Origin: Escherichia coli O127:H6 str. E2348/69
GTDB lineage: Bacteria > Pseudomonadota > Gammaproteobacteria > Enterobacterales > Enterobacteriaceae
Assembly: GCF_000026545.1 (NCBI RefSeq)
Contig: NC_011601.1
Reading direction: 5' to 3' (one strand)
DNA: 64,000 nt
The notes beneath the pieces are model-generated. The model made no database searches. It saw only the letters and a list, made by a program, of their open reading frames with translations, and was not told where the DNA came from. This document shows, one piece after another, positions 55,684 to 57,242 of this stretch (positions are counted from its first letter, which is position 1; each line of letters starts with the position of its first letter). A program made the translations under genes and the position numbers.

Positions 55684-56241
55684 ATGTCTTATTCAGAAAT
55701 CGCCGCGTGTCTGGCATACGCGGTTTCCGTCTGGCTGGCTGCCAGAAACAATGTGCATACATGGTGGATCGGCATAATTGGCAGCATATTGTACGGCTGG
55801 GTTTTTTGGTCCGTGCAACTCTATGCCGACGTTACGCTCCAGTTATTCTTCATCGCGACCAGCATCACTGGCTGGATCCACTGGCTGAAAGGTCAGGGTG
55901 GCGACATCTTGCCGGTGCGCCGAACGCAAGCCTGTCACTTTTTCCTTTTGTTGCTCTGTGCTGTCGTCGTGGCAGGCGGTTACGGCTTTTTACTCCACAC
56001 CTTTACCAATGCCTGGGCACCCTGGCTGGATTCGTTGATTTTGACCTTTAGCGTTCTGGCACAATTCATGTTGATGGGAAGACGTATCGAAAACTGGTTC
56101 GTCTGGTTAGCGGTGAATACCTTGGCAGTGCCACTGTATATGACGCGCGGTTTAAACCTGACCGCTGGCTTATATTTCCTGTTCTGGATTAACGCCTGGC
56201 ATGGTTTGTATCAATGGCGCAAAGAGTTGCAAACATCATGA
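55684..56241 (+). CDS. PnuC-family nucleoside (nicotinamide riboside-type) transporter, short form
   Basis: 185-aa Trp-rich membrane protein with PnuC-like signatures (ITGWIHW..., IENWFVWLAVNTLAVPLY); SD gggaggg; translationally coupled to the next gene. Confidence 0.65.
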   Translation: MSYSEIAACLAYAVSVWLAARNNVHTWWIGIIGSILYGWVFWSVQLYADVTLQLFFIATSITGWIHWLKGQGGDILPVRRTQACHFFLLLLCAVVVAGGYGFLLHTFTNAWAPWLDSLILTFSVLAQFMLMGRRIENWFVWLAVNTLAVPLYMTRGLNLTAGLYFLFWINAWHGLYQWRKELQTS

Positions 56242-57242
56242 AGCCTTTTGCAACGGGCCTGGTGGTTGGTAAATTCGCGCCTTTGCATTGTGGTCATGAA
56301 AAGTTGATCAATACCGCACTGGCGCAATGTGAAGAACTGTTCATCATCAGTTATTCCGTGCCGGAAATGCCTGACTGTGAACCTGAAAAGCGCCTGACGT
56401 GGCTGCAAGTGCGCTTCCCGCAAGCGACGATTTTGGTACTGACGCCAGAGCTTGTTGCGCGTTATAACTTACCTGCCATACCGCATAACGATGCCGATGC
56501 CGACATCCACCGTCATTATGTGGCGACGCTGTGCCTGCAGATATTACGCTGTCGTCCACATGCTGTATTTACTGCAGAAGACTATGGCGATGGCTTTGCT
56601 AACGTGCTGGCGCGGCGTTTTGCCCAACCCGTTGAACACGTTCGAATGGCGCGCCCAGTTGGCGATGAAGCGCCTTCGGGAACGCTTATTCGTTCCGATG
56701 TTCACCGCTATCGCTACATGTTGGCGAATGATGTTTATTACAGTTTCGTTCGCCGTATCTGTCTGCTTGGTGGCGAATCTACCGGTAAAAGCACGCTTTC
56801 AAAAGCGCTGGCGGATGGGCTTGATACGGTGTATGTCGCTGAATTTGGCCGCGACTATTGGGAAGAAAAAAACGGAATCTTAACCGCGGATGATTTGTTG
56901 CATATCGCCTGCGAACAGGTACGCCGGGAACAACAAGCAGAAGCTAATCACTATCTTATATGTGACACGTCGCCACTCACGACCTTGTTCTATGCCCTTG
57001 ATCAATATGGTCATGCTCCGCAAGAACTTCATCAACTGGCGGAGCGGGAATACTCTCTGGTGGTGCTTTGCGGCGCAGAATTTCCCTTCGTGCAGGATGG
57101 CACCCGGCAAGGAGAGGTATTTCGCGCACGGCAACAGGTGTGGTATGAACAGGAATTGTCGCGCAGGAACATTCCTTATCTTTCGGTTTCGGGGCCACTG
57201 CAAGAGCGAGTGGAGCAAATTCTTCGCCAACTTCCCGACTGA
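56238..57242 (+). CDS. NadR-like bifunctional NMN adenylyltransferase / ribosylnicotinamide kinase lacking the N-terminal HTH domain
   Basis: ORF 56214..57242; start set at MKPFATGLVVGKFAPLHCGHE (HxGH nucleotidyltransferase motif) overlapping the upstream stop (ATGA); P-loop GGESTGKSTL in the C-terminal kinase domain. Confidence 0.7.
   Translation: MKPFATGLVVGKFAPLHCGHEKLINTALAQCEELFIISYSVPEMPDCEPEKRLTWLQVRFPQATILVLTPELVARYNLPAIPHNDADADIHRHYVATLCLQILRCRPHAVFTAEDYGDGFANVLARRFAQPVEHVRMARPVGDEAPSGTLIRSDVHRYRYMLANDVYYSFVRRICLLGGESTGKSTLSKALADGLDTVYVAEFGRDYWEEKNGILTADDLLHIACEQVRREQQAEANHYLICDTSPLTTLFYALDQYGHAPQELHQLAEREYSLVVLCGAEFPFVQDGTRQGEVFRARQQVWYEQELSRRNIPYLSVSGPLQERVEQILRQLPD

Follow-up and report, generated by a model that had tools for sequence, protein, structure and literature searches.

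What would a second PnuC-type transporter and a second NadR-type enzyme do in a cell that already has both, and how did their genes come to lie between alr and tyrB in Escherichia coli O127:H6 str. E2348/69? Our analysis suggests that the two genes quite probably form an accessory, regulator-free PnuC–NadR operon for salvage of nicotinamide riboside (NR), with the substrate and both enzymatic activities predicted from conserved motifs and a structural model.

The alr–tyrB locus and its distribution in E. coli

The window is a stretch of 64,000 nucleotides from contig NC_011601.1. According to the PGAP annotation, two genes only lie between alr and tyrB in E2348/69:

54582–55661, + strand: alr (alanine racemase), the upstream gene (ORF and PGAP annotation)
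55662–55683, + strand: spacer of 22 nt between alr and the pnuC-like gene, with the Shine–Dalgarno sequence GGAGGGA (sequence)
55684–56241, + strand: pnuC-like gene, 185 aa (ORF)
56095–56118, + strand: W138-x-x-W141-x-x-x-N145 substrate-binding motif, helix 6 (alignment)
56238–56241, + strand: ATGA stop/start overlap, predicted translational coupling (sequence)
56238–57242, + strand: nadR-like gene, 334 aa, ATG start at 56238 (ORF)
56286–56297, + strand: H17-C-G-H20, (H/T)xGH nucleotidyltransferase motif (sequence)
56769–56792, + strand: Walker A motif G178-GESTGKS185, kinase domain (sequence)
57243–57323, + strand: spacer between the nadR-like gene and tyrB (blastn junction mapping)
57324–58517, + strand: tyrB (aromatic amino acid transaminase), the downstream flank (ORF and PGAP annotation)

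An earlier sequence-only reading had placed two overlapping open reading frames at 55684–57242, and both are there; its length for the transporter is right, while the 335 aa given for the enzyme should be 334. A longer reading of the nadR-like frame from 56214 gives 342 aa, and the start at 56238 is backed by homologues and by PGAP. The ATGA overlap is real, too, and 4 nt of overlap are kept in every enterobacterial locus examined (eight measured loci, Atlantibacter and Scandinavium) as well as in the F11 and C10 alleles; the nadR-like start codon within the overlap is GTG in Enterobacter sp. ENT03. Spacing between alr and the pnuC-like gene (11–24 nt, with a ribosome-binding site) is conserved across the enterobacterial loci measured (n = 8).

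Of 5426 complete E. coli genomes, 868 carry the pair (∼16%, about one in six) and every carrier recognised belongs to phylogroup B2, a group that includes ExPEC, EPEC E2348/69, Nissle 1917 and ATCC 25922. Query coverage is 80% or more in 867 of these 868 genomes, and all full-length matches listed have both genes annotated as CDSs. Canonical nadR was found in 5424 and canonical pnuC in 5425 of the same 5426 genomes, and both coexist with the pair in every carrier, which makes the pair a strongly diverged second copy. In K-12 the site holds 174 bp of unrelated DNA with REP sequence; canonical pnuC of K-12 adjoins nadA, and its nadR lies elsewhere. The statement in the sequence-only reading that K-12 lacks the pair here and has pnuC and nadR at other places is thus borne out, and 84% of the genomes are, like K-12, without the pair. 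Its description of a self-contained unit of PnuC and HTH-less NadR, additional to the canonical genes, also holds. Two high-identity E. coli matches labelled as plasmids (H122, H123) look like chromosomal pieces.

Both genes are under purifying selection. Allele classes differ at dS of 0.24–0.32 with dN/dS of 0.06–0.16 over both genes (0.06–0.08 for the pnuC-like gene, about 0.16 for the nadR-like one), and four alleles examined for internal stops have none.

The transporter and the enzyme

Both proteins match their families far beyond chance. The pnuC-like protein spans positions 1–175 of 175 of PF04973 (Pfam, E = 3e–48) and aligns to residues 51–230 of the solved PnuC 4QTN in a PDB sequence search. 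It is a core-only, seven-helix transporter of the Pnu type; canonical PnuC has an additional N-terminal helix (239 versus 185 aa). While it passes the PnuC equivalog model TIGR01528 of NCBIfam (75.4 bits, cutoff 42.45), it stays under the cutoff of the enterobacterial PnuC subfamily NF011926 (62.9 bits versus 335) and is 23% identical to K-12 PnuC; judged by its sequence, it is a distant paralogue and not canonical pnuC. Its WxxWxxxN motif is at least 90% conserved in an alignment of 73 sequences (clade transporters together with E. coli and N. mucosa PnuC). Conservation in the clade extends to W138, W141, N145 and the gate residues W67/W178 and Y47/Y164, all of which are the same in the PnuC of E. 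coli and N. mucosa.

Pnu transporters recognise their ligand through a WxxW(x)3D/N motif, with Asn in PnuC and Asp in the thiamine transporter, and are typically co-located with a kinase that traps their substrate (PMC5749112). Here the neighbour with the 4-nt overlap encodes a NadR-type kinase, and this pairing is kept in most of 80 related loci. PnuT (thiamine) and PnuX/RibM (riboflavin) share with the pair the Pnu fold and the presumed scheme of facilitated diffusion followed by kinase trapping (PMC5749112). A thiamine or riboflavin precursor, offered as a substrate in the sequence-only reading, is nevertheless unlikely, because the partner kinase is of the NadR type, not a thiamine or riboflavin kinase, and the transporter motif carries Asn as in PnuC, not the Asp of PnuT.

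The nadR-like protein consists of an N-terminal NMN adenylyltransferase (NMNAT) and a C-terminal ribosylnicotinamide kinase (RNK) domain with no HTH. It is 29% identical to K-12 NadR over an alignment that covers NadR residues 67–386, its start being equivalent to NadR residue about 61–67. The HxGH motif, the kinase P-loop and the missing DNA-binding domain noticed from the sequence are therefore all confirmed, and the lack of an HTH puts the protein outside the trifunctional regulator subgroup of enterobacterial NadR. The HTH does not define the NadR enzyme family but is confined to enterobacterial NadR, and pnuC–nadR operons are known (PMC2330246). Over the full TIGR01526 model the protein scores 140.8 bits (E = 6e–41; cutoff 341.15) and with NF005988 90.4 bits (cutoff 201); since both scores fall under the curated NadR cutoffs, RefSeq/PGAP names it 'AAA family ATPase'. 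It also matches PF13521 in Pfam and solved NadR/NMNAT structures in the PDB by sequence (best 9x6f, E = 6e–25). On these comparisons it is a member of a divergent NadR clade.

The residues expected of both activities are kept. In a 46-sequence alignment that includes K-12 NadR, H17, G19, H20 and R152 are invariant and S147 and T149 at least 90% conserved; S147, G148 and R152 of the adenylyltransferase-domain motif S147-G-T-L-I-R152 align with S207, G208 and R212 of K-12 NadR. In Walker A, six of eight residues (G178, G179, E180, S181, G183 and K184) reach 95% conservation or more in the clade and are the same in K-12 NadR (G238–K244), while T182 and S185 fall below 95%. The kinase domain further has a Walker B motif, D243-T244, and a lid, D287-G-T-R290, of which D243-T244 and D287, G288 and R290 are conserved and identical in K-12 NadR. 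Conservation of HxGH, SGxxIR, Walker A and B and the DGxR lid is 95% or higher among 81 clade members, with identity to K-12 NadR. The AF2 model (pLDDT 93.8, pTM 0.85) predicts a Rossmann-like nucleotidyltransferase joined to a P-loop kinase, and a Foldseek search with it returned NadR structures at all of ranks 1–8 (TM 0.61–0.74). Full-length matches were to NadR only (8x7f with TM 0.74, 1lw7, 6gye/6gyf/6gzo), the remaining ones being to a single domain.

The pair has the families, the predicted two-domain enzyme fold and the nucleotidyltransferase, Walker A/B, lid, WxxWxxxN and gate residues of canonical E. coli/Salmonella PnuC and trifunctional NadR, but differs from them in sequence (23% and 29% identity, scores below the enterobacterial NCBIfam cutoffs), in the missing HTH repressor domain and in arrangement, an overlapping operon behind alr with no NadR operator found rather than an unlinked nadA–pnuC and nadR. 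The same NMNAT plus RNK architecture, with no DNA-binding function, and the same operon logic are seen in the HTH-less NadR and pnuC operons of Lactococcus lactis (6GYE), Streptococcus (nadR-pnuC-nrtR), Hahella (pnuC-nadR) and Haemophilus (1LW7); of these, the L. lactis NadR, which has no HTH, has been characterised as bifunctional (PMC7221760). The clade of the pair is separate from these (in Foldseek alignments the enzyme is about 20% identical to the NadR of L. lactis and 24% to that of H. influenzae) and, unlike them, the pair is a second copy in an enterobacterium that already has trifunctional NadR. The pair is thus an under-annotated example of an already known PnuC–NadR kind, and existing knowledge of the mechanism of such systems is unchanged by it.

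Proposed function and alternatives

Outside the Enterobacteriaceae pnuC–nadR is a widespread two-gene operon, with pnuC directly upstream of nadR in most of about 70 loci. Andreprevotia and Chitinimonas have an nrtR-like gene, an ADP-ribosylhydrolase gene, pnuC and nadR in this order, with pncB, nadE and a nicotinamidase-like gene next to them; Massilia has the order pncB, nadE, hydrolase, pnuC, nadR. Together with the motifs and the predicted fold, these NAD-gene neighbours of the nearest non-enterobacterial relatives make NR-to-NAD salvage the best-supported function, in agreement with the second NAD salvage route suggested in the sequence-only reading. NR would cross the inner membrane by diffusion through the seven-helix PnuC-like protein. 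The C-terminal kinase domain of the NadR-like protein would phosphorylate it to NMN and so trap it in the cell, and the N-terminal adenylyltransferase domain would make NAD from NMN and ATP. The two genes would be translationally coupled and most likely read through from alr, and such read-through would make their expression independent of the NadR repressor that controls nadA–pnuC. The operon would have been retained in ∼16% of complete E. coli, in B2-type strains, and lost or replaced elsewhere. It should be noted, however, that the pair duplicates an existing pathway of the cell, which counts against NR salvage.

This coexistence with the canonical NR route would be explained if the pair performed the same chemistry on another riboside (nicotinic acid riboside, reduced NR or an analogue), or if only one of the enzyme activities mattered. 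Substrate specificity could indeed have shifted, given the 29% identity to K-12 NadR and the sub-cutoff scores; the transporter is still more diverged from its canonical counterpart (23%), the clade sits on a long branch separate from K-12 NadR, and canonical genes stand alongside the pair in every carrier. Yet all motifs of NR-specific PnuC and NadR are retained, including the Asn of WxxWxxxN, the PnuC equivalog TIGR01528 is passed, and the nearest outgroups sit among NAD salvage genes with an NrtR-like regulator, so we consider another substrate unlikely, although it is the alternative that survives best.

By analogy with phage pnuC–nadR operons, the pair might instead rebuild NAD after depletion by an NADase toxin or defence system. 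NadR homologues are common in phages (743 phage records), where a pnuC–nadR operon has been hypothesised to reconstitute NAD (bioRxiv 10.1101/2024.02.11.579819), and an ADP-ribosylhydrolase adjoins the pair in some relatives. Phage operons such as those of the BASEL phages also resemble the pair in being a two-gene transporter plus NadR unit with no regulator. However, their NadR proteins are less than 32% identical, and the E. coli pair lies on the chromosome with a native composition, has its synteny and its housekeeping flanks conserved across genera, and shows no mobile or defence-island context; PADLOC gave no meaningful match (a 16-bit P-loop match only). Repair after NADase defence, raised in the sequence-only reading, thus finds no support, nor does any other defence or counter-defence role, and it seems very improbable; it would, moreover, be a physiological role and not a separate mechanism.

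About half of the more distant clade members (34 of 70 non-enterobacterial loci) stand at the end of a MoxR / zincin-vWA / radical-SAM / PaaK-like cluster, with the PaaK-like gene directly upstream. The cluster runs MoxR-type ATPase, 339-aa protein, zincin(HExxH)-vWA protein, optional radical SAM/SPASM protein, 194-aa protein, PaaK-like protein, optional pnuC and nadR-like gene; it was found in Oxalobacteraceae, Xanthomonadales, Verrucomicrobia, Geobacteraceae and others, with its order conserved over several phyla. Six of the 34 loci have the nadR-like gene without pnuC, and cluster-associated members branch deeper than stand-alone pairs. These loci hint that the original role of the clade was maybe not plain NR salvage. 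That the clade began as a component of an undescribed multi-gene system, the MoxR to PaaK-like cluster, has a slim chance in our estimation; the enzyme would then phosphorylate and adenylylate something other than ordinary NR, e.g. a modified pyridine riboside, and the B2 pair could make or salvage a non-canonical dinucleotide instead of just duplicating NAD salvage. Still less probable is that the E. coli pair is itself a remnant of this system, its enzyme acting on an internally made metabolite and not in NAD salvage, as no cluster gene stands beside the pair in Enterobacteriaceae, the Pseudomonas mendocina group, Andreprevotia or Chitinimonas, and the lineages nearest E. coli have clear NAD-salvage neighbours. 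The vWA–MoxR 'FtsH ternary system' (PMC7159879) was considered for the upstream cluster of the distant relatives and does not fit it.

A decaying, functionless leftover, as redundancy with the canonical pathway and absence from 84% of genomes might suggest, is effectively refuted by the selection analysis, and the near-complete coverage in carriers, the annotated CDSs and the catalytic motifs conserved across genera leave it a negligible chance.

As an NR salvage operon, the pair would be an NAD-precursor route so far unrecognised in the metabolism of B2 E. coli, with its enzyme mislabelled in RefSeq. The paper on the KguS/KguR island compares the alr–tyrB region without mention of pnuC, and a literature search with guessed CFT073 locus tags (c5029/c5030) returned unrelated catalogue numbers only. 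Defects in nadA or nadB make several B2 lineages auxotrophic for niacin/NAD (NC101, and UTI89 as cited there; PMC8207962). Salvage that escapes NadR repression could aid growth in host fluids containing NR, and the pair could confound nadR or pnuC knockout phenotypes in B2 strains.

History of the site and expression of the pair

The sequence-only reading described the pair as inserted, which is probably wrong. The order alr–pnuC–nadR–tyrB of E. coli recurs in Enterobacter, Kosakonia, Superficieibacter, Scandinavium and Atlantibacter (six genera of Enterobacteriaceae), and the enterobacterial genes form one clade. After tyrB, aphA follows in the enterobacterial loci of the genome scan and in Scandinavium, but not in Atlantibacter. 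GC content is 0.49–0.52 across the pair versus 0.51–0.57 in the flanks, and no boundary repeats, integrase or transposase, or tRNA target were found at the locus. Because of this shared synteny, the single clade, the native GC and the lack of repeats, integrase and tRNA, the pair looks like an old resident of the alr–tyrB site and not a new insertion. Recent arrival as a mobile element or genomic island was rejected on the absence of mobile signatures, the native GC and the occupation of the same site in six genera, and phage or plasmid origin was rejected as well, phage NadR homologues being less than 32% identical.

Comparison of the junctions shows that the difference from K-12 sets in, on the left, with the 55662–55683 spacer. 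On the right, 78 bp upstream of the tyrB GTG, from 57246 on, are common to K-12 and E2348/69 (blastn), and both states thus share the proximal control region of tyrB; stretches of this spacer are also kept in Enterobacter, Kosakonia and Superficieibacter. In K-12, homology breaks off with the stop codon of alr and returns 78 bp ahead of tyrB. The spacer between has no remnants of the pair, and the direction of the event is therefore not readable from scars. We infer that the K-12 spacer is more likely the derived state, by loss; the evidence points to most E. coli having lost the pair or had it replaced by homologous recombination.

Judged by the spacing, transcription of the pair is probably driven from alr. 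A scan for promoters and terminators found no convincing terminator and no above-chance promoter in the gap between alr and the pnuC-like gene; one weak promoter-like site lies inside alr (55471–55498). Promoter-like sites numbered 4 versus 5.0 expected from shuffles and so are not above chance, while terminator-like matches were commoner than in shuffles (13 versus 6.0), none of those between alr and the pair being judged convincing. In a search of 53000–58700 against Rfam, nothing matched at E up to 1, riboswitches included.

The canonical nadA–pnuC operon is controlled by the NAD-responsive NadR repressor. No NadR box (TGTTTA-N6-TAAACA) with up to three mismatches occurs in 52057–58339; a site at 21796 with one mismatch belongs to an intergenic hairpin and is unrelated to the locus of the pair. 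In Serratia fonticola a near-perfect NadR box stands 3 nt upstream of pnuC; the homologous Chania sequence gives no match at up to two mismatches and, by eye, departs from the box at three positions.

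The gene pair between alr and tyrB

The window matches the E2348/69 genome at 100% identity, and between alr and tyrB it carries a second PnuC-NadR module, a gene pair that is real, intact, under selection and under-annotated. The locus reads:

54582-55661, alr, upstream flank of the pair
22-nt spacer from alr to the pnuC-like gene, with the ribosome-binding site GGAGGGA
55684-56241, pnuC-like ORF, 185 aa
56238-57242, nadR-like ORF, 334 aa, ATGA overlap with the pnuC-like ORF
81-nt spacer from the nadR-like gene to tyrB
57324, GTG start of tyrB

Re-reading of the sequence bore out the coordinates, overlap and motifs of the sequence-only reading; its sole correction concerns the nadR-like protein, which has 334 residues and not 335.

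The transporter spans the entire Pfam NMN_transporter model (E=3e-48) and scores 75 bits with TIGR01528, the PnuC equivalog of NCBIfam, for which the curated cutoff is 42 bits. Its score with the enterobacterial PnuC subfamily model is far below the cutoff (63 versus 335 bits), and it is just 23% identical to K-12 PnuC. It aligns to residues 51-230 of N. mucosa PnuC, whose structure is solved, and thus lacks the non-conserved N-terminal helix of that protein. The motif W138xxW141xxxN145 (ligand motif WxxWxxxN as defined in PMC5749112), gate tryptophans W67/W178 and tyrosines Y47/Y164 are retained, the same residues being found at these positions in E. coli and N. mucosa PnuC.

Alignment of the enzyme with TIGR01526, the NadR NMN-adenylyltransferase model, is full-length (E=6e-41), at a score of 141 bits that is well below the 341-bit cutoff, hence the PGAP name 'AAA family ATPase'. 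Identity to K-12 NadR is 29%, over an alignment that begins at NadR residue 67, past the HTH, in agreement with the earlier observation that no DNA-binding domain is present. HxGH, SGxxIR, Walker A, EYGR, Walker B and the DGxR lid are among the residues at least 95% conserved in 81 clade members and are identical in K-12 NadR. Full-length structural matches of the AlphaFold model (pLDDT 93.8) are to NadR only (8x7f, TM 0.74; 1lw7; 6gye/6gyf/6gzo).

PnuC-NadR modules are a known kind already, to which the E. coli pair adds a further one: outside enterobacteria NadR typically lacks the HTH and pnuC-nadR operons have been described (PMC2330246), L. lactis NadR being a characterised HTH-less example (PMC7221760). 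The main interest of the pair lies in B2/ExPEC physiology and in putting right its reading as an insertion.

Occurrence and origin

The spread of the pair in E. coli, a question raised by the sequence-only reading, is limited: of 5426 complete genomes, 868 have the 1.56-kb pair (867 of these near full length, with ≥80% of the query covered) and most lack it. The carriers that we recognised (E2348/69, ATCC 25922, Nissle 1917, UTI89, APEC O2:K1, ST131 JJ2434 and F11) are all B2. Of the 5426 genomes, 5424 have canonical nadR and 5425 canonical pnuC, so the pair is truly additional. Its absence from K-12, stated in the sequence-only reading, holds true; in K-12 and the rest of the ∼4560 genomes without the pair, an unrelated 174-bp stretch that includes a REP-like palindrome, GCCGGATGCGGCGTGAATGCCTTATCCGGCC, takes its place (K-12 locus L002, 3163-3336, equivalent to window 55662-57245). 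Homology with K-12 stops at the alr stop codon and restarts precisely 78 bp 5' of the tyrB start codon, and junction comparison detected no remnants of the pair in the K-12 spacer. Since just these 78 bp are common, any tyrB control element farther upstream differs between B2 and K-12 strains.

Synteny across Enterobacteriaceae genera points to an old resident and not to the insertion proposed earlier. Scanning one genome per species, combined with ORF matching, revealed that Enterobacter hormaechei, E. cloacae, Enterobacter sp. ENT03, five Kosakonia and two Superficieibacter species all have the order dnaB-alr-pnuC-nadR-tyrB, which is shared by Scandinavium and Atlantibacter. Every enterobacterial locus measured has an alr-pnuC spacer of 11-24 nt and the 4-nt overlap. 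Compared with E. coli at the protein level, the transporters are 71-84% and the enzymes 59-73% identical; the figures for alr and tyrB are 82-90% and 84-87%. Enterobacterial enzymes form a single clade in a neighbour-joining tree, GC content of the pair is native, and neither boundary repeats around it nor a phage or plasmid relative was found. From this combination we conclude that the pair is a long-standing occupant of alr-tyrB in Enterobacteriaceae. In the Yersiniaceae Serratia fonticola and Chania it is sited elsewhere.

At least three allele classes exist in E. coli (∼98-100%, 92.6% and 91.4% nucleotide identity), and dS of the pair between them is 0.24-0.32, ∼3-fold that of the flanking core genes alr and tyrB (0.08-0.10). 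In F11 (L085, 812-2578) alr itself is only 89% DNA-identical to that of E2348/69 (dS 0.43) and an additional small gene (186-aa hypothetical) lies between dnaB and alr, which indicates that the region is exchanged through homologous recombination in the conserved flanks. Loss or replacement is the more likely origin of the K-12 state, and the opposite direction, spread of the pair by such flank recombination, is less likely. In the UTI89-type allele (L087) the nadR-like gene is shortened by an in-frame deletion of 6 bp and encodes 332 aa. With dN/dS of 0.06-0.08 for the transporter and ∼0.16 for the enzyme, and no internal stops in the four alleles examined, both genes are kept by purifying selection.

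Right after tyrB, window 58699-64000 and beyond contain a second 2-oxoglutarate dehydrogenase/succinyl-CoA synthetase set, a DASS transporter, an Ldh-family oxidoreductase and a sigma-54 regulator. This gene set, an insertion between tyrB and aphA, is known from UPEC (c5032-c5041) as the KguS/KguR island for alpha-ketoglutarate utilisation (PMC3694859). Strain C10 has the pair without the island, so the two are independent. On the other side, qorA (NADPH:quinone reductase; 52043-53031, minus strand) is broken into two ORFs and is annotated by PGAP as a frameshifted pseudogene in E2348/69.

Context in relatives and proposed role

In most of ∼70 non-enterobacterial loci pnuC is immediately 5' of nadR, and in lineages closest to the enterobacterial clade the pair is set among NAD-salvage genes (L013-L015, L030, L032, L071, L077). 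Andreprevotia and Chitinimonas have, in order, an NrtR-like regulator, a Tri1/DraG-like ADP-ribosylhydrolase, pnuC and nadR, adjoining pncB, a nicotinamidase-like gene and nadE; the Massilia order is pncB, nadE, ADP-ribosylhydrolase, pnuC, nadR. We know of no discussion of an ADP-ribose-releasing hydrolase within an NAD salvage operon.

A class B acid phosphatase gene, aphA (TIGR01672, 380 bits; 5715-6428 in K-12 locus L002), is the next gene after tyrB in the enterobacterial loci of the genome scan (L003-L012) and in Scandinavium (L091); no AphA-type gene was found after tyrB in Atlantibacter. In Salmonella, periplasmic AphA turns NMN into nicotinamide riboside (NR) for PnuC. The ancestral alr-pnuC-nadR-tyrB-aphA order would thus group three NR-salvage functions, though this may be coincidence.

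Context in relatives, motifs and predicted fold together best support a mechanism in which the transporter would take up NR and the enzyme would trap it and convert it to NAD. NAD repair after NADase attack, suggested earlier, is conceivable, and a similar role has been hypothesised in print for phage pnuC-nadR operons (bioRxiv 10.1101/2024.02.11.579819), yet nothing at the locus backs it. A NadR-type partner kinase and Asn in the ligand motif make thiamine or riboflavin transport, the other suggestion, unlikely.

In 34 of 70 non-enterobacterial loci, from several phyla and mostly on deeper tree branches, the pair closes a conserved same-strand gene cluster (L033, L040-L082); in six (L040, L042, L044, L054, L058, L068) nadR-like occurs without pnuC. 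The cluster comprises:

gene 1, MoxR-type ATPase (AAA_3 and AAA_lid_2)
gene 2, 339-aa protein, no Pfam match
gene 3, ∼600-aa protein, no Pfam match, HExxH and DxSGS vWA-like motifs (by eye, representative sequence)
gene 4, radical SAM/SPASM-like enzyme, optional (15 loci)
gene 5, 194-aa protein
gene 6, PaaK-like adenylate-forming enzyme

Three of these proteins have no PADLOC or Pfam family, and our literature search found no published description of this cluster, which is apparently undescribed. No enterobacterial pair is accompanied by it. Its presence does suggest, at low probability, that the substrate on which the clade originally acted may be other than ordinary NR.

Expression

Between alr and the pair there is no NadR operator, Rfam element, above-chance promoter signal or convincing terminator. 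This argues for read-through from alr, and we infer that the pair would be transcribed from alr and escape NAD repression, in contrast to the NAD-repressed canonical nadA-pnuC operon. In Serratia fonticola, where the pair stands alone, TGTTTAAAGGAATAAATA (L090, 4426-4443) differs from the consensus NadR operator at one position and ends 3 nt 5' of the pnuC-like start, and regulation by canonical NadR is possible there. The Chania counterpart has three mismatches by eye and gives no match at ≤2 mismatches. Across the whole window, NadR-box-like matches with ≤3 mismatches number 42 versus 21.8 in dinucleotide shuffles, none of 100 shuffles reaching 42. The best of them (21796-21813) belongs to a hairpin between genes, and the surplus is probably due to A/T-rich intergenic palindromes, not to operators.
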